A stretch of DNA of 64,000 nucleotides, taken from positions 1 to 64,000 of the forward strand of contig JAPEUI010000027.1 of NCBI GenBank assembly GCA_026025075.1, read 5' to 3'. Every line of letters begins with the position of its first letter. Positions within the stretch are counted from its first letter, which is position 1. Below are positions 388 through 61,292 of the stretch, piece after piece. The notes below the pieces were generated by a model that saw only the letters and a program-made list of their open reading frames with translations, made no database searches and was not told the DNA's origin. The translations under genes and the position numbers were made by a program. The DNA comes from Vezdaea acicularis (Eukaryota).

Positions 388-1260
388 CTACGAGCCCCTC
401 AACTGAACCTGCGTCATCCTCGTACCACCAGCCTTCCGAATCTTCTCCTCGAGCTTACCCTCATGATCGAGTTCCGCGATATCGTCGCCGCCGCCAAGCG
501 AGACGCCCTGGACGAGGACATTGGGGACGGTGGCGCGGCCGGTTCGTTTGGCGAGGAGGCGCTGCAGGAGGGGGCCGAGGGGGTGTTGGTCGAGTTCGAC
601 GACGAAGGGGGTGGGCCGGATGTTGTACCGGTCGAGGAGGATGTGTTTGGCTTTGGTGGAGTGGGGGCAGTAGGATTTGGAGAAGATGATGACTTGATTG
701 CGTTAGCTTTTTGGGGGGCGGAAGGTGAAGGGGAGGGGGAAGGAGGAGGAGGAAGTACCAGGGGATTTTTTGAGGATGCTGTTGAGTTCGGCGGCGGTGC
801 GGTGTTCCTCCTCGGTTTCGTCGTCGGCGGCGTCGGGCTGGATCGGGGCTTGTCCTTCTTTCGGGGGCATTTTCTTGCGGCCGGCGACGCTGCGCTCTTC
901 CTCTTCCTCCGTGACCTGCCACTTGCCTTCTGTTCCCATGGGTGGCTGTTCGGGCTTCAAGGGCAGTTTGCGATCGGCGGCTTGTTTGGCGGCCACTTCG
1001 GCGTCTTTGAGACGGTCTTTGATCGGCTTGTCGGGCGCGATGTAGTCGGCTTGTCCGCCATCTTCGCCGCTGGAGTGTGAGGTCGAGGGCGTGTCCGGGG
1101 TGGCGTGTTTGGCGTTCAGGGCGGCTTCGGTTTTGCGGGCGAAGGCGGAGTCGTGCGGGGAGTGGGTGTCGGAGGTGGTATACAGGATGATGCAGAGGAG
1201 GAGGGTGAGGGCGAGCGCGGTCACCTTTATGCGGCGCGTCGAGGGCATCATGGAGGACAT
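388..1260 (-). CDS. Membrane-anchored monothiol glutaredoxin (Grx6/Grx7-like), 2 exons
   Basis: N-terminal TM (VTALALTLLLCIILY). After intron 758-693 (GTACTT..GCTAAC..AAG) reads KSPVIIFSKSYCPHS...RATVPNVLVQGVSLGGGDD, i.e. CPxS active site, TVP and GG motifs. Stop at 388. Start could be 1248/1251. Confidence 0.85.
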
Positions 1261-1699
1261 GGGTAGAGATGTTTCGGTGCGAGGGGAGGTGCGGTGACGT
1301 GAGGGTGCTGGATGGCGATGCTTCGCGACGGAGATTGAGGGTGCGGAGTAATGCAGAGTTTCTCGTTCCTGCGTCGGCGTCGGGAGTAGTGGTGGACTGC
1401 GCGCTGCAACAAGCTGTAGATGTAATGCTAAGCTAGATGTCGGGGAGTTCAAAATATTGAATGGTACTTCAAAATTGATGGTATCTTATTGATACTGGTG
1501 ATAGAAAAGGGAGGGATTTGAGCGAAGCCAGTGAATAATTATTCAGAGAAGCGTGATGGAGGCTGCTAGCAACGGCCAAGTGAATGCGATAGCAAACGCA
1601 GACGCAATGCAAGAGCGAAAGACCATGAATATGGGAATGATGGAAGAAGAAGAGGGGAGTTTTCTTTACAACGAAAGAGCTCTCTCTTTCACGGCAGCC

Positions 1700-17463: not shown

Positions 17464-19127
17464 TGCTGTTAATGGAAAATGGCGGTATTCCAACCTAGCA
17501 TGCGTAAAAAGCTGTCCAATGAGCATGCGACTGCATGTGCCAAGAAGAAAAAGAGAATAATCGTGAAAAGTAGCGTAATTATAGCATTTATTTATGGAAG
17601 GGTAAGGTGGTGATGGAGGAAACCCAATCATCCGTCATTGAAACTCAGCGATCGCTTGCAACCTTCACATATTTCGCACGACCAGTCCCCAATTTAGAAC
17701 GGTGACCTCACAGCTTCACCGCGTAGCATACTCAAATCTACAAAGCTAGAAGATTCACATTGCTTGTCGATACTGTTTACGAGCATCCACGCTCGAAGAT
17801 CAGAGGGGAGGCAGACAGACAGATCGATGGGCCTATCACGCTCCACGCGCTCACTAATCGAGACTCGGGCAGGAGCTGATCCACGGAACATTGTATCACC
17901 GTCGTTTTCCGAAATACACCAAGCTGTCAGCAACTTCAACCAATCCTCACCAGCAGAACGCCCGTGCAGCCATGCAGCTTGTGAGCCTCGCGGCCAAGCG
18001 AAGACCAAGGCAGAGGCACAAGCATTTCAACGGAAGCCTCTTCCCCGCCTGTTCCCCGGACTACTTTACCGCTTTCGAGGAAGTTTGGATTCTACTGTAT
18101 CTCCAATTGCTTGCCGGGTTAAGCTCAGCAGACGGACGAGAGCAAGCCACCGGCCTGCAGCTGCACGCTCAGGGATGGTATCATCTGAGGGGGGACTGTC
18201 GTGCTTGGATACGGCGGGGCAGTCACGCTACCTGGGCGCCTCGCGAATCTTATCTGGATACGAGAAAGCTTGGGCAGGTCCATGCAGAAGCGATTCACAC
18301 GCGAGTAGCAAAGAGTTTGTCACACACGAAGACGAATATGCCGCCACCAGCGCTGGAACCTCGTGGTATGACTTAAAAGGCAAAGTACGAGCTGGATGTT
18401 CACACAGTATCGAACAATCGAGGCAAGCAACCAGGCTCCAATCAACTTTACTGATCCCTCTATGTTCATGGACTGAGCGAACCTTCTGCTTCTCACGTGC
18501 CATCCCTGCTAGGAGTGCTAGGGCAAAGACCGGACCGTGGAGAGCCTCGGCTATGAACAGTCTCGTGATCTCCCCTCGAAGAGCAGCCGATGCTGTGGAC
18601 AATATCGACAACAACAGTAGTCAAAGTCGCAAAGGCATTGGCCGCAAATTGGCAGGCTTCAACTCATCCCGTTAATCCAAAACGCTTGCAACCGCTCACC
18701 AAGCTTCTTCCTGTGCGGCAGCTTAATCAATCGCCACGCCACGAACCTCAGCCTGAGCCTGGCCCTGGCCCTGGCCCTTGCCTAGATCCACCAGTCACAA
18801 GCCCGCCGCGGCGCAAGCTTCGCACCGTCGCGGCGATAGCGCCCCCACTCCCGTCATCATGCTGCAGCCCTCTGTCCACTGATAATCCAGGAATTTAGGT
18901 ATAGTATCGAGCCTCGCAGTTCCCCATCATATAGCTCGTTCAATTCACTACTCAACCCGCGCCCTACTCGCTGTGCCCCCAGGACCGACCATCGCTCGCC
19001 GCTCGATCACGCAATCCCTCACCCCAGACCTTGTACCCTCTTATAACGCCGCAATCACCGCAATTCATGCCCATCACCAACGCTACCCCACACCAACCCG
19101 TCCCCTTCAATTCCTCCTTCCGCCAAC

Positions 19128-30780: not shown

Positions 30781-31082
30781 TCATTTATAGTCTACATGCG
30801 TTACGATGCCATTCTCTCCGACGTACACATTGAGCCGATCGGGGTTAAAGTCCTGTGTGACCATGGAACCCTGCTCAATGACACGATGCTTTGGAGGGAG
30901 ATCCTTCTTCGCGAATGACTGTAACAATCAGCGTGGGTAGCGCCAAGTACGCAGTGTTGGTATCTCACTATTTCATCGGTTTTTGATTCGCTGTCTTTTA
31001 AAGTCTTCCCTATTAACTTGTTCTGCCATTCGGTCTTCGGGTCTCCCGAGTTGGAAGTAATACCAGGCACGATGAGGGGCAT
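30781..31082 (-). CDS. Small peptidase-inhibitor I78-like protein, 2 exons
   Basis: MPLIVPGI..WQNKLIGK..|SFAKKDLPPKHRVIEQGSMVTQDFNPDRLNVYVGENGIVTHV matches the T-x-D-F-x-P-x-RLN motif. Confidence 0.8.
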
Positions 31083-32056
31083 GATTAATATCTTGAATGT
31101 GTGAATTTCAGATAGATGGCTTCTAAGATATAGGTTCAACAGTGAATGGTTGAAGAGGCTTATGAACAGTAGGGCTGGAACTAGTCTTCCAGCCTCGAAG
31201 TACTTAAGGGAAAGCTTTCCGCCACCAAGGCATGACGTAGACGTAGACGTAAACCTACTTACGCCAGGCACGCACGCTACCAAGGCCTTACCGTTGTAAG
31301 CTAATGCTTGAGTAGAAACAAAGCATTAGGATCAAGTGGACTCAAAGTTTATCCCGAGTATCCAACTATACTGATATCATCCCAAATGTTACAGCCGCGT
31401 TCCTGCTGTTGAATCCATCATCCTGTTGATAACATCGTCTAAATATATACATACAGGCGTTTCACCTGCCAGGGCTCTGGCATTTTCCGGTTGGCGCATC
31501 TCGCTTCCAGCTTGGCGCGTTCCGGGAAAACATGAAACCGGCGAGGGCGCTCCGGGCGGACGTTGGCTCGCGCATGCAGATGGATTGTCCGGTAAGAACA
31601 GGATGCAGCGCTTGCTGCTTCAAATGGGACGCAAAGAGCTTCACAGTGCTCTCCAGAGCCGTGAATGGCGTCCAATCCTCGGTGGCGAGGCCAAGCCGAA
31701 TCCTGTTGGTCGGCAGGGGAAAGCTGGCTTTGGATCCATGCCTGCTCCCGTCTTAGCCTGCTTTGACGCAATTTCGCCTGCGCGTCCTACAATTTCAGGA
31801 GAGCCTGTCACCGGTGTGGCTGTTCATGCGAGCCAAAGCATCCGCAACGCTCCTCTCCACTAGTACAATAAACTCTCCAACAGTCATTCATTTTGCTGCG
31901 ATCCCCACATTCGTTATGGCAGTCTTGCCCTCGATGCTTTGAGGTTCTCACCGGAGAGTAAGCTCTACTCTCCTCTTAAGGGATACTTCACGATTAATTC
32001 TTCGATTTCCTTGCTGTTAAGACCATTTGGTGCACAAGCAGGTCTTGTCGCCCACA

Positions 32057-33379
32057 ATGCGCCGATCCACGATCCTTACCCTGGTGGCCTGCCAACTTGC
32101 TGCTGTCACTGCCAACTTCGAATGTCACGGCGTCATTCTACCTGACTCTCTACGAGGTCTCTCTTGCTCTGATGGAGGGGAGCTGGGCCTCCTCGCTGAT
32201 GGACTGTCTTTAGGTAGTCTTGCAGATCTTCCCAGTTACTTGGAGACGCGTGGCTGCCGGCTGTACACTCCGTCGAATCCGGATTCTTTCTTTGATCAAT
32301 GTCGACAAGGCCAGGGGTCCTCTTTCGACGGCCAAGACAATGATTTAAGACGACGAGGCATCGTGCAGGACTTCACGAGCTGGGTGGGAGGAGGTGGTGG
32401 GGACTCGCCTTCGACGACTGCGAACAACAATAAACCCCAAAAAACATCATCGGCGAATTCAAAGTCCCAACCCACGACCAACCAGCCGAGCATGCAATCC
32501 TCTAATACTCCAACCTCGCAGTCCTCTGCTCCGACAACAATGACTTCTGCCAAATCATCATCAAGTCCTAGCACCACTTCCCAGACCTCGACGTCCACCT
32601 CGAAGTCCACCTCGACATCAAGCTCGACAACTTCATCTACCAGCTCTGAATCTACAAGTACAACCTCCTCCTCCTCTTCTTCCTCTTCAAGCTCATCGAC
32701 TACCTCAACGACAAGTACGAGCTCCAGTTCATCCAGCACTCAAACGCCGTCTCCGACGAGCACTTCAGCATTACCTACGGCCACGGTTCTTCCAGTTCAA
32801 AAGCCAAGTGGCGCATCGAATGGAACAAAAGTAGCGTTAGGTGTCGTTGGTGCGCTAGCGGGCTTGACCATAATTCTCCTTGCCTTGTTCTGGATCAGAA
32901 GAAGGAAACGTAATATAGAAAAGGCTCGGATGGCAAGATTACGTAGTGAACATCTCACAGGCAAGGACGATGATAACTGGAGGTCGTCAGACAACAGTCT
33001 TGAGGGAGGTTCTATGTTCGCCGATAAGCAGAGTAGCAGCATGCAGCACGACCGTCGATACCCCCAGAACGATACCATTCCAATGACAAGGGCGAATACG
33101 TGGAACACTGAACAGAGCGGACAGTTACCTCGGGCAAACCTTCAAAGAGAACTCTCATTCAATTCTCAGCCTGGCTCTGAAACTCTGAACCGACCTGACC
33201 CAACTTTCAATCCACCTGCACCCAAACAGGAATATGTGGCCTACAAGCCTTTCGCAAGCTCATACAAGGAGCCGGAGCCTGGCAGTACCTCACCAATATC
33301 GAGATTTGGCACACCACCTGTCCCACCACCTAACCTAGCTGTACCGCGAAAACCAGTGAGGGCAAGGACATCGGAGTAA
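32057..33379 (+). CDS. Ser/Thr-rich type I membrane protein (Mid2/Wsc-like cell-wall sensor architecture)
   Basis: Signal peptide MRRSTILTLVACQLAAVTA, 4-Cys N-domain, LRRR, about 120-aa S/T tract, TM VALGVVGALAGLTIILLALFWI followed by RRRKR, cytoplasmic tail. Confidence 0.75.
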   Translation: MRRSTILTLVACQLAAVTANFECHGVILPDSLRGLSCSDGGELGLLADGLSLGSLADLPSYLETRGCRLYTPSNPDSFFDQCRQGQGSSFDGQDNDLRRRGIVQDFTSWVGGGGGDSPSTTANNNKPQKTSSANSKSQPTTNQPSMQSSNTPTSQSSAPTTMTSAKSSSSPSTTSQTSTSTSKSTSTSSSTTSSTSSESTSTTSSSSSSSSSSSTTSTTSTSSSSSSTQTPSPTSTSALPTATVLPVQKPSGASNGTKVALGVVGALAGLTIILLALFWIRRRKRNIEKARMARLRSEHLTGKDDDNWRSSDNSLEGGSMFADKQSSSMQHDRRYPQNDTIPMTRANTWNTEQSGQLPRANLQRELSFNSQPGSETLNRPDPTFNPPAPKQEYVAYKPFASSYKEPEPGSTSPISRFGTPPVPPPNLAVPRKPVRARTSE

Positions 33380-37404: not shown

Positions 37405-39481
37405 CCCGCTGTGCGGCGACGTGCGCCTAGGTTGCACAAAAAACCGGAGCACTGTGGTTTATTATGCATTGGCCCAAGACACGCTACACGCAACATGCAT
37501 TTTGACTGTGGGTGATTGTTATTTGATACTGCATGTGAGTTGAAAATGCTCAGCGCTTTGAACGATCGCTTGTGGGTTGTTGGGTGCACGATAAGTAGTT
37601 AAACGGATACAATGGGGGGAGGCAACCGTTTTGGAGCTTCGCTACTAAAATCTGAAATTAATCCTAAGTATAACATCATCCCACATGAATTATTGCAACA
37701 ACACATTGAGGCATCATCTCGTTGACTTTGTGGGAGCAGTCTGTTGGCCAATCACTCCCGTAATTTATTTAGTGGCATGGATCAATGTGCCCTTTGTCAC
37801 GATTAAATCTGAAGCTTTTGGAAGCTCTGGGTGTAAATTATAGATCTTGCCATCTAAATTAAGGTCCACAACTAGATGTTTGTGGCAGCACCTAACCTAG
37901 AGCCAAGTGACTTGGCAAGCGGTCTTGTTGAACTTCTTAGTAATTGTTTCATCTTAATATTTACATATTTGCTCTGCTTTTATGAACTTGTCTTGCCTCG
38001 CCCCAGCTGCTTCCTCTGCGTCTAGATTTTAATAACAAGTCCTCGAGTTCTTGGGAGTGAGTTGACACATCCACAGGTTTTGTTTCAGCAACAAAGCACC
38101 TGCCTACTCTTACCCGCGGGTGAAAGCTGAATTTTGACGTCCTACTGAGTTACCACAGTCAAAAGATACACCTTTATGGTTAACTGTAACAATTGTAAAA
38201 TCAGTAGGCTCTGACGACTTTTCACGTCCTTATTCACAGTAGATCATCTGGGAAGTTCAATTTCGTTCCCATCACTTTTGCAGGGCTCTGAGTTCGTCAA
38301 ATCGCTTTGGAATTGCCATTAGCCCCTAAGTGCGTTAGACTATCAGAGGCTCTACTTGTTTTAGTGTACTCTCCTTCCTACTGGAAAACTGGCCATCTAC
38401 TACTGCCTCTCAAGATTAGGAATAGTCCATAGCTTAGTTGTCGCGAATCGCGAGTCTTTACAGTTAGCGACCTCCAGTGCGAGAGGAGCTCTATTGTCCG
38501 CAAGTGCCCTGTGAGAATTTGTTCGCTGGAATGTGACGTATGTTCTACTACAGAGGACCACAAGCCGTAGCCTAGTTGTTTTGGATTGAGTTGAGAACAA
38601 ACGGTGGTGAGAAGCATACGTGAAACGATATCGTCACCAGTGGCTTGTCATCCTCCGCATTCGGCATGCCGCGCGCTTTACTGTTGAGCGGCAACCGTTT
38701 CCGTCTGGCGCCTTCGTTGACCGTCAACACCAGCGCAAATTCCTTGCCTGCACCGAGCTGCTTGCAAGCTTCCGGAAACATTGCCTGATCACCAATAATT
38801 TTGGGGGCAACAGCAGTAATTGAGGAAAATATAGAATCATCATAGCCTTTTCATCGGGCGTCAAGGGGAGCGTATATCGTTTCACGCGCCGCCCGTTACC
38901 CCGCTACTCTACCCCCCGCGATCCTGAAAAACTTTCTAAATTGGAGGAGGTTTCGATAACCCTAGTTAAGGGGAGGCAGCTTGTGGTGACGGGGCACTGC
39001 TTCGAACGTTTGCTTAGATGATTTCCATGATCATGGAAGTCCCGTTTTAATATCCGTTGTCAAGGACGCCAGCAAGAGCGAAGCTATTTTGCCTACCCAG
39101 CCACTTTAAAATAGGTTGCAGGCTTCTGTTCATCTTTAAGTCAAATTGCTTCTTTGTTTCCAGGCTCTGCTGCGAATCATTTTCAACATTCATCCGTAGT
39201 CTGCCGCCACTAGCTAGTCTGGGCCCAATGGGGGTTTGCGATGCCGTCCTAGGCCCCTGGATTGCAGGTAGTTCGCGTTGGCGATAAGGGTAAGGGCACG
39301 AAACCGCTCACTCCCGCATTTTCTCACACTGTCGTTCGGAAAAGCGAAATTAAAGGTCATGTTGCGCTCCGCTATATATTACAGCAGGGTCGCTGAAAGA
39401 TGGTGGATGTGTCGTTAACGTCCATCTTTTGTACATTTTCGCTTTTCCTTTCAGCTGTGCTCATGTCGAATTGACTTCGAC

Positions 39482-41099
39482 ATGTCTTCCATTCTTTTCA
39501 AGACAATTACTTTCTTTCTCCTTGGCCTGGTGCCAACTGTGCTCGCCCACAACTACGTTGACTGCGTCAACTCAAAGCCAAATCTCACTGATCTTCTGAC
39601 GGAGAAAAAAGGACCATATAGCGCTGTGGGTGATTACTGTGATGGCTTCCCTCGCGGTATGCCCTCCTCCAACACCGCTCAGGCAAGTGCAGTTGGCAAT
39701 CAAGGATATCCATGGTAAAAATACATTGCTATCATTCGTGTAGATCGTGCAAGACTGATAGCTCTTGTAGGCAATTCATCTGGCCTATGCAGGATAGTGT
39801 AGCATTGAACACCCACCGCGCGTGCAATTGGCTTCAAGAAAACCCTACCTACGACCCGGAGAAGAACATCACTTCTGTCAAGCCAGGAGCCACTATTCTG
39901 ATACGCGTTTCTACTAATGCCCATTCCCACGAATACACGAAAAGGGCATCCGGACATTATAAGGTACGTTGTTCAATAGATACTCTGGCCAATTTCTAAG
40001 ATGTCAAGGCAGATATACATCGCGGGCGATGCTGGAACACACATAACTACCACGAGTCAACTCACGGATGACCGCGTTGTATTCTTTGCCCCGGAAAACA
40101 AATATGCCCATATTATCGGTATTCTCACTGGCTGAGGGCATTGCTAGATTGCGTTGCTAACGTTGTGCAGGCAATCCGTCGGCAGATAATGGTCAAGGGG
40201 ATCCAGGATATGCTTGGCTTCCGTTCAAGTTAGTAGATCCTTCTGGGAACCCACTCCCAGCAGGGACCTTTAATTTCGTGTGGACTTGGTGGTGGCCGAC
40301 TGCCGTTGGAGATCAGTTTCAAGACTTTATGATTCCTAGCTATACTACATGCTTTGATGTCACCATTGACGAAGGTGCAGAAGACGCCGGCTACCTAACG
40401 GAGGTGGTCAAAAATGACCCGAACGCTCATATTGGATTGATCGGAAACACAACGAGTCCTGGAGCGAAGGATCAAACTTCACCATGGCCACCGTATCCCG
40501 ACGGCTATCTCACTCAGAACTTTGACGGCTTAGACCCAGCTGATCCAGGCGCAAAAAGAACCTTCCAGCCATACTTTAATCAACATGTCGACGCACTGAA
40601 GATGCCGGCACCTATGCGGCAGAAGATACCACCAATCGGCTCTTGGAGCGCTGCCCAACTCGCTCAACAAATAAACTCACCCCCAGGCAGCGGTGTCTTC
40701 CCTCCCAATCTGACAGCGGCCGGAAGTATTTTGTCAAAAGGCCAGGATCAGATGCCTGTGACGGAGAAATTAGCTCCGCTAAAAGTCGGACCTGGTTCCG
40801 GCTTTGGCGATACGGACTTCTATCCTAACTCATCCGTGACAGACCCGATGATTTCCCCCAATTCATCAAACTTCACTGACGTGATGCCTACGCCGGCAAA
40901 TCTTGACTTCTTGAAGAGCGCTGCCGCCTCCACTGTGTCGCTGATGGCCACGCCGACGGCTGCGCTGCAGTCGTCATCTATACTCGCTTCCAGCGGTAGC
41001 ACTCCATCTGTCCCGTCACCACCGCCTTCTTCGCCTCTTCCGAAGCCGGCCGCAGTCTATGGCCGGCGCCAGAAAGGAAAAGAGCGAAGGCTACGCTGA
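39482..41099 (+). CDS. Secreted protein with N-terminal His, putative LPMO-like copper (His-brace) fold, 4 exons
   Basis: Exons 39482-39714, 39771-39963, 40013-40118 and 40171-41099 splice in frame via GT-AG. Signal peptide ..PTVLA|HNYVDC, CDGFPRG, RVSTNAHSH, FVWTWWWP, SYTTCFDV, then a P/S/T-rich tail. Confidence 0.75.
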
Positions 41100-54092: not shown

Positions 54093-54254
54093 GGTATCTC
54101 AATTTCTCAACACCGACTGAACCATGAAAGGGCAGCGCGCGCTTCTACCTCAACTTAACTCTACTTCTTGACTGAACTCTCAATTAACCTTTACAACTTT
54201 CGCGCATGCGTGCTGATATGATTGTTCCCATTCGACTTCACTTGCTGTAGCAAG

Positions 54255-55742
54255 ATGGCTCGGCTTCTGGATAGGCTCTTTTCGCTCTGCGCTGGCCGCG
54301 CATTGTCAGACCGACTTGAACAACATAGGATTAGGAAATGGGCGGAGGAGTGTGATAAAACGTCTACAGCACATATAATTACGCCATTGCTGGGCATACT
54401 GCCTCAACAAACGACGAATAGCGACGACGCAATGGGCACCAATCCTAGTCCTCAAGCAGCAGCACTGGCCGCACAATCGGCATGTCATCCTGCGCAAGCC
54501 ACCACGACCTTGCACCTGTCTCAGTCAGTGGAACTCGAGCCGACGCGATCTAACTTCATCGACCCATCGACCCTGGCTGCCGTTGCGCCAGATCTGGCTA
54601 GCCCCCCGCCAAGCGCGCCTGGTCCGCCTCTCTTTCGCGCCCCGCCAATGCCTGAGATGATTGGCATCGGGAAGTTTCGTCGAGCAAAAACAGCCACCGA
54701 AGAATGGACGCGCAACAACTATCACGCCCATACAAGTGTCCTCGGCACATGGGTGAAGGATACTTTGATACGATCAGAGACATTGCCGCAATGGGAGAGG
54801 GATACTCTGGAAAGAAAGGATAGCGGAGTCTGTGTGTCGCCTTCAGGCGAGACAGGAACTCAGAATGTCGAAATCGATTCGGAAAATGGCAGTATGACAG
54901 TTCGAGGCTTCATGTCGCAAGGCTCTTCACTTGTATCAACTCCTATTCGAACCTCCATCATTACTCGCCCTCGTCGTCTATCACTTCTCTCCATTGCCAG
55001 CCGAAACCGCACCATTGTGGATGATATCAACGCCCTAGTCGTCTCACCCCAGGAGCTGAATACCAAGCTTGCGAGTGCCATTGGAAGTCCTGCCTCGATT
55101 GTATCTTTTCCACTATCAAACTCGCCCTTTCTGCCAGCGTCCGGCGCCGGTCAAGCAGCGCAGAAAAAACGAACTCGTCTCGAATTGCTCGTGAACCTAC
55201 GAGCTCTCTTTCAGAGTGGCTGCTACGAGGATGTCTTTGAGAAAGACTCCCCACCTACGGCTTCCGCTGCGATAGGCATGGAAATCGTCAAGTATATGGC
55301 AGAACCGGAAGTTACCCCCGCTCAAGCAGTGCCAGTCACCATCAAGCTTCGCGCAGACACATCAAATACGGGAAACATGGCCGTGCCTCCTGCTCGCCGT
55401 GTCAGACCTACGGTAAAGGTCGCAGGACAGAGAAAGTCGCAACACGTTCGAAAGTCAGCAACTCGGCCTTCTAGAACAGTTGCCCACGCTAGAAATAAGT
55501 CTGAAGAAAGCAATAGATCGAAAAAGACAGGAGTCGCTATCAAAACGTGTGTGGCGGCGCATAAGAGTGCTCTGCAGCAGACCAAACCTATCGTCGCCGG
55601 CTTAGCAGATCACCGAAGGAGAATCACTTGGGTAGATGGCTTGAACGATGAGAAAGGCATTACTTCAGACGACAAGTCAGAGGAAGGAAGAGTAACGCAC
55701 TTGGAAGACGTGGTGGGGAAAGGAGAGCTCATCTGCACCTAA
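54255..55742 (+). CDS. Hypothetical, likely disordered orphan protein (about 495 aa)
   Basis: Uninterrupted 1.5-kb ORF filling the space between MET14 and GCV1. S/P/T/R-rich with no recognisable domain. Confidence 0.55.
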   Translation: MARLLDRLFSLCAGRALSDRLEQHRIRKWAEECDKTSTAHIITPLLGILPQQTTNSDDAMGTNPSPQAAALAAQSACHPAQATTTLHLSQSVELEPTRSNFIDPSTLAAVAPDLASPPPSAPGPPLFRAPPMPEMIGIGKFRRAKTATEEWTRNNYHAHTSVLGTWVKDTLIRSETLPQWERDTLERKDSGVCVSPSGETGTQNVEIDSENGSMTVRGFMSQGSSLVSTPIRTSIITRPRRLSLLSIASRNRTIVDDINALVVSPQELNTKLASAIGSPASIVSFPLSNSPFLPASGAGQAAQKKRTRLELLVNLRALFQSGCYEDVFEKDSPPTASAAIGMEIVKYMAEPEVTPAQAVPVTIKLRADTSNTGNMAVPPARRVRPTVKVAGQRKSQHVRKSATRPSRTVAHARNKSEESNRSKKTGVAIKTCVAAHKSALQQTKPIVAGLADHRRRITWVDGLNDEKGITSDDKSEEGRVTHLEDVVGKGELICT

Positions 55743-59250: not shown

Positions 59251-60621
59251 TCACCTAAACAACCCACCAAAGACTGACGGCGTGGATTTCCTTCTCTCGG
59301 CTTTCTTCCTCGCAGCAAGCTTCTGGGCTTTCGTTTCCGCTTTGTCGACAACTACTTCGACGCCAGCTGCTCCAACATAGGCCTTCTGCATGCGTAGCCG
59401 TGCGGTATGATCCCACCACGCTTGTCGTTCCTCAGGAGGGACAAAGCGCCTGATTATGACGAAGTTTGAGTCGGTCTGAAAACAATTTTTAGCTTCACTC
59501 TAGGCAGATATAGTGTCATGGCAACTCACAGGATCGATATAGAAGTCCACTTTAAATGTATCCAACGTCTTCAACGAGACGTGTCGCCTAGACATCTTCA
59601 CATGGACTGGTTTGGTCATGTCCACTGCGTTTGGTGGAGGGCCCCAGGGGGAGCCGACAGGGGGCGGGGGAGGTGGGACGCCCATTGGTCCACCCATTGG
59701 GCCGCCCATCGGCCCGCCCATCGGACCACCCATTGGTGGGAGGGCTCCAAATAGAGGTGGTCCACCTGCAGGAGGAAATGCCGGAGGCGGCGGCGGACCT
59801 CCTGGTGGGCCAAATCCGGGCAACTGATTGTCGAAGGGCGGTGGGGGTCCAAACGCTGGAGGACCGCCCATCTGAGGTGGGCGTAACTTTTCTCCGCGTA
59901 GGATCGCGTCGATCTCTCTTTGAGGGAGTACGCCACCAAACTGGCGCTGCACGCGCTCCTTGTATTCCAGCTCTCTTTGCTCTTGATCTCTCTTAGCTTT
60001 TGCCTTCTCCTCATCTTGCTTCTTCTTGAATTTCTCAATCGCTTCGGCCTCCCATTGCTTCTTCCGCTTCTCCTCCTCACGGCGTTGTTCCTCCTCTTTA
60101 GCCTTCAGCAGGGCCGCCTCTTCTCTAATTCTCTTCTTTTGAGCTTCTTCTTTTTTCTCCTTGTTGTACAGCATTAGCTGCTTCTTCATCTGCTCCTTTT
60201 CGGGGTCCTCTCGAATTTCTGCCAGCGCCCATGCGTTCGGAGAGGGTTCGCGCGAACCATAAGTAGACGCACGATATCTCCCACCTCCACGGTATTCGGA
60301 ACGGGAAGACTGCATAGAATAGGGACTGGGGTCACGGCTATCAAATGTGTAATCCGCTTCATACACACTGCTGGGCCGGCCGCGCTCAGGTGGGAACTGG
60401 TCAACAATTACTGGGCGTGAGACGGGGTTCCGGTGGCCAGTAGAGCGCGATCTTTGGAGTGGTTCGCCTCCGGCGAAGTCTGGTGCCATATATCCTCCTC
60501 GAGTAACATAGAAGGGCGCAGTGCGGTAGTCATCGCTTCGCATGCGACGACGACTCGGTCGAGCATGGTCGACTCTTACTGGCCCATCGCCGGGGTCGAC
60601 GTACTCGAAGCCGGTATCCAT
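59251..60621 (-). CDS. Conserved fungal hypothetical protein: coiled coil, Pro/Gly repeats, C-terminal domain of unknown function, 2 exons
   Basis: E/K/R coiled coil, (MGGP)4 and HVKMSRRHVSLKTLD..IDP|TDSNFVIIRRFVP..WDHTARLR. Stop at 59251. Confidence 0.75.
59680..59740 (-). repeat. 12-bp coding tandem repeat encoding (MGGP)4
   Basis: Translation PPMGGPMGGPMGGPMGGPMGV. Confidence 0.85.
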
Positions 60622-61292
60622 TGTAAGATGACCGCGATATTACGTGGAGCAGACAAGGGTTAATTGAACAAGTGGATGTCTTAGGTGCTGTTATCAAAGT
60701 GTGAACGTGCAACAGGCAACAGCCCGGGTATACTACACTGCTACCGCAACAGATTGAGAGCGTGAGAAGATCCAGACAAGATGGAGAAGTCGGTGGGTCG
60801 CGAGATAAGGGAGCGAAAGCTAAGGGGGATGGGTGCAAAAGGAAGGGAGAAAGTGAAACAGAAGTTGGTGGGGTTGTTCGACGCTCCTGTTCTTAATGGG
60901 AGTTGCCGTGGTCGAATCGCACGACAAGAGCCGAGTTGGAAGATTTGGGGGCGCTAGCAAAGTTCCAGTCATAAACGGAGAACGGTCCCTCCAGATAAAC
61001 GCCACCTCATATAATGGAACAGCCAACGTGTATCGGAATCAGGATGAGCTGTCGATGGTGTCCGGCTGCACTTAAGGCTGCACACCTTTCCTGTGCTTTA
61101 TGACTGCGTCGACACGGTGACCGCTTAGGTGTGCCGCCGGCTGATCAATGAAGGATTCGCGAAAAGATCGGCACCAGCGACAGGCGGCAGGGGTTTGTGT
61201 TGCCTGAGCAGTGCCGGCGTGTTGCGCGGGGCGTTATGGCAGTCTAGCCCTACCAGAGGGCGCCCGCTCTGCTGCCTTAATTTTAGGCACAT

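Follow-up and report, generated by a model that had tools for sequence, protein, structure and literature searches.

The stretch of Vezdaea acicularis DNA analysed here, 64,000 nucleotides of contig JAPEUI010000027.1 and hereafter the window, carries between positions 39,482 and 41,099 an intron-split gene whose product would begin with histidine once its leader is removed. The question raised by this locus is whether that protein is a copper histidine-brace protein of the LPMO type, to which family it belongs, and what it might do outside the cell.

Gene model and predicted secretion

The gene is real, intact and conserved. Four exons separated by introns that all run GT..AG give a splice translation of 486 residues with no internal stops; the features discussed below, all on the forward strand, are as follows.

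39482..39714 (+): exon 1, with the leader (residues 1-22), His23, Cys28, Cys53 and the GFPRG motif
39482..39547 (+): predicted 22-residue signal peptide ending V-L-A, from hydropathy and the -3/-1 rule
39548..39550 (+): His23, the mature His1 and predicted bidentate copper ligand, from relatives and the fold alignment
39715..39770 (+): intron 1, 56 nt, GTAAAA..TAG; absent from the paralog P0028, and P0050 reads through the same place
39771..39963 (+): exon 2, with Gln79, His93, Cys96, His129-x-His131-Glu132 and His140
39922..39930 (+): His129-Ser-His131, with His129 predicted as the second ligand of the brace and His131, specific to the clade, as a possible fourth
39964..40012 (+): intron 2, 49 nt, GTACGT..CAG; position common to P0028
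40013..40118 (+): exon 3, with an invariant KYxH motif (His175)
40119..40170 (+): intron 3, 52 nt, GTATTC..CAG; position common to P0028
40171..41099 (+): exon 4, with the end of the LPMO-fold domain, the conserved extension, the low-complexity tail, the basic C-terminus and the stop
40335..40352 (+): Pro233-Ser-Tyr235-Thr-Thr-Cys238, in which Tyr235 is predicted to be axial and Pro233 stands where the second-sphere Gln/Glu usually is
40374..40853 (+): conserved C-terminal extension, residues 246-405, of moderate model confidence and little regular structure
40854..41096 (+): P/S/A-rich disordered tail with a Lys/Arg patch at its end, pLDDT below 50 for residues 421-486

Enumeration at the locus found 33 open-frame GT-AG combinations, and the alternative splice forms among them are ruled out by homology. 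The paralog P0028 from the same genome (G000:C253:59632-61490, loci L005/L006; two introns, His-rich basic tail) shows 54% identity over 384 residues and aligns gap-free at all three junctions, and the contig-called relatives P0001, P0004 and P0005 are continuous across junctions 2 and 3. The chosen splice form is letter-for-letter identical to P0046, which is NCBI KAI9860364.1, a "hypothetical protein" of Vezdaea acicularis; that record is also a gene prediction, and the independent support for the exon model is the homology. A preliminary description of this DNA had also given four exons, and its positions for His23 (39548), His129 (39922), His131 (39928) and Tyr235 (40341) are all exact; the gene is not unannotated, its protein being already in NCBI. 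Its signal peptide likewise agrees with hydropathy and with the -3/-1 rule: the leader is hydrophobic, has small residues at -3 and -1 and is followed directly by His in all seven full-length proteins examined. No GPI-type hydrophobic end was seen, the best 15-residue hydropathy in the last 40 residues being 0.24 and the end being Lys/Arg-rich.

The gene sits among housekeeping genes. A divergent casein kinase II beta gene lies 2.1 kb upstream, RIC1 is convergent with the window gene, and beyond these two are SGT2, a KRE2-type mannosyltransferase and HIR1. Pfam matches were obtained for 12 of 17 further long ORFs of the window, all of them housekeeping or transport; the long frames of the window that have no Pfam match at E <= 0.001 are 464-1432 (-), 17698-18675 (+), 30801-31325 (-), 32021-33379 (+), 54222-55742 (+) and 59500-60639 (-). 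The upstream gap of about 2 kb, previously described as gene-free, does lack genes by these measures: positions 37405-39481 (2.1 kb) have no stop-to-stop frame above 105 residues and no Rfam match, and contain no notable repeats and a GCTG count at chance level. A perfect 14-nt inverted repeat has one arm upstream of the gene (39345-39358) and the other in exon 4 (40265-40278), 906 nt apart, and is probably due to chance.

Calling this an accessory gene is unsupported, since the same genome has the paralog and two canonical genes of the Pfam family DUF7492 discussed below, and the base composition is ordinary (GC 0.517 and GC3 0.513 for the coding sequence; 0.478-0.547 and 0.448-0.553 for nine neighbouring ORFs). 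Horizontal or recent transfer was rejected because both values fall within the neighbours' range; the tree described below cannot place its long outgroup rows. The paralog P0028 also lies amid housekeeping genes, with Pfam matches in 7 of the 11 ORFs there, and a gene cluster reading was dropped because both paralogs have such neighbours. Among the neighbouring ORFs scanned there is no gene cluster, redox partner, glycoside hydrolase or copper-transport gene. Scans for relatives' loci with exact patterns, one of them intron-spanning, gave 106 and 40 pattern matches in metagenomes and 12 in prokaryote genomes, none of which was confirmed.

Predicted fold and putative copper site

AlphaFold2 modelling of P0046 with 34 sequences predicts a beta-sandwich at residues 23-245 (mean pLDDT 69.1, pTM 0.76), with pLDDT of about 83-94 in the core strands and below 50 in loops 41-50, 73-81 and 83-85. 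When this model was searched against 48,161 PDB representatives, ranks 1-23 of the best 50 matches were all LPMO-fold chains (Z 7.3 to 5.0), comprising AA15, AA10, AA9, AA11, fusolin, AA13, X325, AA16 and AA14, and the first unrelated chain appeared at Z 5.0. A second fold search returned LPMO-fold chains in 50 of the 50 best matches, with a top Z of 7.5. These scores, 5.0-7.5 and never 8 at rmsd 3.3-5.2 A, lie in a range below 8 that may reflect common arrangement only, and they prefer no family. The case for the LPMO fold comes instead from the uniform identity of the matches and from His1 being in register: the alignment begins at His23, opposite the first mature residue of the matched chain, in 22 of the 23 LPMO-fold matches of the wide search and 49 of the 50 of the second. 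Foldseek gave three matches at E <= 0.001, all AA9 or AA10, and the model of P0028 gave the same fold result. A viral fold library gave no match at E <= 0.001, and searching the PDB by sequence gave none for the domain of the canonical paralog and one chance match (E 0.54) for the clade profile.

The individual comparisons are close to one another: CvAA9A (5NLT) at Z 7.5, rmsd 4.2 and 179 aligned residues; TdAA15A (5MSZ) at Z 7.3, rmsd 3.5 and 156; ScLPMO10C (4OY7) at Z 7.0, rmsd 3.5 and 149; and AfAA11B (9HDG) at Z 7.0, rmsd 3.8 and 153. Among the matches listed, AA11 and AA16 rank level with other families or behind them, and no AA17-labelled chain occurs, which excludes nothing. The window protein has in common with AA9, AA10, AA11, AA13, AA14 and AA15 the predicted fold, His1 in register and a Tyr in the x-x-Y-x-x-C register; it stands apart from them, with the families tying, in its 9-20% identity, the lack of a Pfam match, the absence of the usual Gln/Glu and its H-x-H motif.

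By profile the protein is not AA9, AA10-type, AA14 or X325. The AA9 profile (PF03443) does not match P0046 and matches three other loci in its own genome; LPMO_10 (PF03067, for AA10-, AA13- and AA15-type proteins) also fails to match, with the control for the genome search matching in 1 of 14 genomes. AA14 (PF22810) gave no match for P0046 in the Pfam scan, and the corresponding genome search, which found nothing anywhere including control genomes, is uninformative. The X325/Bim1 profile (DUF6595, PF20238) does not match at the window locus and matches two other loci of the genome. AA18, which we take to be CelOCE, was set aside on its presumably different fold. AA18 is credited to Santos et al. 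2025 in PMC13431639. As a separate observation, an AA9 gene of this genome (L012:1201-2300, G000:C282) has a second-His loop, WPHPGP, that is shorter than usual, and a stop near its N-terminal His may mark an intron.

The model, the uniformly LPMO-fold top matches and the missing AA9 Pfam match agree with the original proposal of a His-brace-type beta-sandwich outside AA9 and AA11, and we consider it very probable that this secreted protein behaves as an LPMO-fold His-brace protein. Its standing as an LPMO enzyme, judged from its sequence, is that of a candidate.

Residue conservation was counted over 28 non-redundant relatives (from 45), the denominators being relatives that cover the column; P0041, an unrelated cluster member of 54 residues, and the low-scoring P0053 were left out. 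His23 and Cys28 are each kept in 4/4 and Cys53 in 8/8, the count for His1 being thin because most relatives are fragments. His129, invariant in 18/18, is paired in the alignments with the His of the DUF7492 ENGH motif and with the sole His at this place in the distant relative P0026. Two residues on, His131 is present in 16/18 (Gln or Ser in the other two) and lies at a loop or turn in the AlphaFold2 model. Further histidines are conserved at 93 (11/12), 140 and 175 (18/18 each), and none of these three nor His131 occurs in canonical DUF7492 proteins or P0026. Tyr235, found in 21/22 with Phe in the remaining one, has its register set by E-I-Y-T-T-C of DUF7492 and Q-N-Y-P-Q-C of an AA9 from the same genome. 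Cys238 is kept in only 8/22; in the Letrouitia/Bacidia group (P0009, P0011, P0032-P0036, P0042, P0045) Ser replaces it and the extension has new Cys residues, so that the disulfides are wired differently.

The residue two before the axial Tyr, which is Gln in the AA9 of this genome and Glu in both canonical DUF7492 copies, is Pro233 here and in 22/22 relatives, and the usual second-sphere Gln/Glu is thus absent. According to the available text of PMC10472438, Gln or Glu occurs in more than 96% of AA9, AA10 and AA11 proteins at either of two backbone positions, some AA10s using the second position, and all the characterised ones covered there have one. Gln79 (12/12, in a low-confidence loop), Glu132 (17/18) and Asp229 (17/17) are candidate second-sphere residues from such an alternative backbone position, of the SmAA10A type. 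Aligned sequences thus mark the putative site of the clade by Pro at the second-sphere position and the H-x-H motif, together with three more conserved His and the conserved C-terminal extension.

That extension is conserved at 58% mean identity over residues 246-311 (n=22, equal to the domain), 39% over 312-360 and 35% over 361-410. Residues 251-400 have pLDDT 66-88, AA9 chains align out to residue 383, and the extension probably wraps the domain. What had been described as a P/S/T-rich tail following SYTTCFDV is therefore domain-like over residues 246-311, and the description holds for the low-complexity far end. Basic disordered tails are present on many AA9s, active ones included (PMC10990093, partial text), and AA9-X282 offers a loose precedent for a conserved belt-like extension (PMC10354095, partial text).

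Relation to DUF7492 and distribution of the clade

The whole protein matches Pfam DUF7492 (PF24320) marginally, at 28.9 bits against a 27-bit gathering cut-off (E 8.5e-07), and exon 4 alone matches below the cut-off. Of 12 other clade proteins none reaches the cut-off and 11 have a sub-threshold match, whereas canonical members score far higher, at 363 bits, with 365.5 and 279.9 bits for the two canonical copies of this genome. By hhalign the clade aligns end to end with the canonical protein P0006 over 211 columns (probability 84.6%), and a larger alignment gives 94.4% over the N-terminal 109 columns. The alignment pairs His23 with His1, Cys96 with Cys, His129 with the ENGH His, the Trp strand with its counterpart, and Tyr235 with the Tyr of E-I-Y-T-T-C. 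The link to DUF7492, which had been put forward in the preliminary description, is thus upheld by the Pfam match and by this alignment. Searching the ESM Atlas with the domain of the paralog gave DUF7492 as the top match (0.92); below 0.9 there were leads to a cluster, 23% of it LPMO_10, and to one from Mucoromycota that carries the automatic name LPMO.

Both groups share the leader followed by His1, G(Y/F)PRG, a Cys, a second His after the same strand, a W-x-W-x-W-P strand and Y-T-T-C-x-D. The window protein differs in having TNxHxHE (TNAHSHE) in place of ENGH and Pro in place of the Glu two before Tyr (P-S-YTTC), lacks the DDGRC/WC cysteines, and gains the Cys28/Cys53 pair, three His and a conserved extension of 160 residues. 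The motifs it lacks (ENGH, DDGxC/WC and E-x-YTTC) were taken from the two canonical copies of its own genome and not from the Pfam seed. These copies, at G000:C243:62149-62874 (L001; P0006) and G000:C293:76431-77226 (L002/L004), both have His1, ENGH and E-x-YTTC, and the C293 copy stops just past its domain. With their second-sphere Glu kept, the canonical copies would be stronger candidates than the clade proteins for genuine LPMO activity.

When 1.84 billion representatives were searched by profile, only 24 proteins came out at E <= 0.001, made up of 22 clade members, P0026 and one chance match. No canonical DUF7492 protein was among them, which makes the clade a small group standing well apart. 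Another search found 18 matches among 8000 candidates scored. P0027, a bacterial-looking match in the search of 1.84 billion (E 5e-4), is without the clade motifs and was dropped. P0026, an ENA record, is complete in length but only distantly related; it has His1, a single second His and the motif P-D-F-T-T-C, with Phe at the axial position and Pro at -2. It has no Pfam match and is nearer to the clade than DUF7492 is (hhalign 99.5%), and a search seeded with it recovered only P0026.

In a tree of 26 rows, from which 29 short or redundant rows were left out, the window gene groups with P0007 of V. aestivalis and metagenome rows (SH-aLRT 99), P0028 groups with P0008 of V. aestivalis (88), and Letrouitia and Bacidia form a third group (91). 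Because each V. acicularis copy pairs with a V. aestivalis copy, the duplication predates those species. The record P0007 (KAI9894677.1) joins the likely ortholog, represented by its exons 2-4, to a WLM protease gene and a FAR-17a/AIG1-like gene; the fusion, from which the His1 exon is missing, is probably due to faulty annotation.

Nine clade records are named (four from Vezdaea, four from Letrouitia and one from Bacidia), and the rest are metagenome ORFs. Letrouitia and Bacidia are lichen fungi. The ascomycete genus Vezdaea is lichenised or lives in association with algae (PMC13616976, partial text). All nine named members thus come from lichen fungi, a bias that is a lead and not a range because the other members are metagenome ORFs and the collections searched cover intron-split genes poorly.

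The idea of a new family needs tempering: the protein fits none of the characterised families tested, but its clade is a divergent one at the edge of an existing, uncharacterised Pfam family. Through this clade the models would place DUF7492 in the LPMO fold. In the literature searched, mostly outside subscription journals, we found no paper naming DUF7492 or PF24320, and among papers on new His-brace or LPMO-like families, likewise mostly outside such journals, no description of this clade. Specialists may already track the family. The available text of PMC10714830 lists unannotated LPMO-like structures from another ascomycete, one of which could be a DUF7492 protein.

Possible functions of the protein

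Our preferred reading, held tentatively and at somewhat less than even confidence, is that the protein may be a secreted monocopper His-brace protein that acts in the manner of an LPMO, as an atypical peroxygenase whose target is a glycan of the wall or matrix and not plant cellulose. Starting from the intact and conserved gene, the leader would be cut before His23, as the sequence rule and the homologues suggest, and the alignment and predicted fold would have the amine and ring of His23 together with His129 bind Cu above Tyr235. By analogy with LPMO chemistry, a reductant would prime Cu(I), H2O2 would be activated and a glycan C-H oxidised. As Pro233 cannot position H2O2, our guess is that a conserved acid or amide elsewhere in the protein (Gln79, Glu132 or Asp229) takes over this role, as in chitin-active AA10s. 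We also guess that the conserved extension and the basic disordered tail might hold the protein in the wall and, from the lifestyle of these fungi, that the substrate might lie in the fungal wall, the lichen matrix or the algal wall; lichen fungi have reduced plant-wall enzyme sets according to the available text of bioRxiv 10.64898/2026.07.28.741190. The LPMO-fold matches, the conservation of His23, His129, Tyr235, Gln79, Glu132 and Asp229 and the alignment with the E-x-Y-x-x-C of DUF7492 favour a peroxygenase, and so does the absence of a GPI end, unlike in X325. Against it count the invariant Pro at the Gln/Glu position, which speaks against a plain LPMO, the possibility that His131 fills the open copper position, the poor modelling of the loops expected at the substrate face, the lack of a redox partner or glycoside hydrolase among the scanned neighbours, and the fact that X325 and MtAA16A, with the same fold, can lack polysaccharide activity.

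It is also possible, if rather doubtful, that the protein binds or handles copper without catalysis, His23, His129 and His131 closing a four-nitrogen site like that of pMMO CuB. The Gln/Glu would then have been lost because no H2O2 is activated, His93, His140 and His175 might bind more metal, and the role of the protein would be to buffer copper in the wall or to deliver it there, by analogy with what has been proposed for X325/Bim1. The likeness to X325/Bim1 extends to a fungal, secreted protein with an LPMO-like fold and His1 (LaX325, 6IBH, is among the tied fold matches at Z 6.5, rmsd 3.7 and 141 aligned residues) and to a possible protein-derived fourth ligand, for which the candidate is His here and Asp in X325; the domain of the window protein is the larger. 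The clade-specific H-x-H motif and additional histidines point the same way. The likeness to pMMO, an N-terminal His plus an H-x-H pair, is one of sequence motif only, pMMO being a different protein with a different fold (PmoB is cupredoxin-like). In the available text of PMC12576850 the CuB ligands are PmoB His33 (N-terminal, bidentate), His137 and His139, the same H-x-H spacing as here, and in that of PMC10952591 cleavage that frees the His1 amine switches on the brace and fourth-ligand brace variants are tied to copper handling. However, the Tyr at the axial position is kept, His131 is replaced in two relatives and sits at a loop or turn, there is no GPI signal, the genome already has two X325/BIM1-like genes, and no copper-transport gene was among the neighbours scanned.

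Returning to a catalytic role, we regard as improbable an AA16-like copper oxidase or peroxidase that cuts no glycan, oxidising instead small reductants or phenolics and supplying other enzymes with H2O2. MtAA16A (7ZE9), which resembles the window protein in fold and His1 (Z 5.0, rmsd 4.3, 135 aligned residues), has a normal brace and no glycan activity and boosts AA9s (PMC10088020, partial text); the three AA9 loci of this genome would suit such a partner, and the large extension could close a flat face into a pocket. Yet AA16 is smaller and among the weakest LPMO fold matches, and MtAA16A keeps the second-sphere Gln that the clade has lost (PMC10088020, partial text). Similarly improbable in our view is that His1 binds Ni, Co or Zn in a geometry other than a brace, or that the protein has a structural role in the wall and its site is vestigial. 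A preference for Ni can occur in secreted proteins that begin with His1 (PMC12537917, partial text), and six conserved His permit other geometries, but the Ni-preferring proteins described in that text belong to bacterial families of other folds, and here His1, the second His and Tyr are strongly conserved in the LPMO register.

A bolder and on balance unlikely possibility is that the clade has an LPMO scaffold with a copper site undescribed in fungi, made of His1 plus H-x-H with four nitrogens and no second-sphere Gln/Glu, perhaps with a second His-rich metal site; the clade and the wider DUF7492 would then form an LPMO-like family that has no number yet, and where fungus meets alga this branch would handle copper or remodel walls. 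Each added His-brace family has widened the known roles of the copper site, with new glycan substrates, H2O2 supply and copper handling. If copper binding and activity prove true, on which all significance here depends, the clade would be a natural experiment on whether the loss of the usual second-sphere Gln/Glu still leaves an LPMO functional, and on what a four-nitrogen brace does in a soluble protein, which should be easier to handle than pMMO. The carriers named so far are all lichen fungi, so the protein is also a candidate player in lichen-wall chemistry, of which little is known, and these fungi may have in it a copper enzyme or copper carrier of a new kind.
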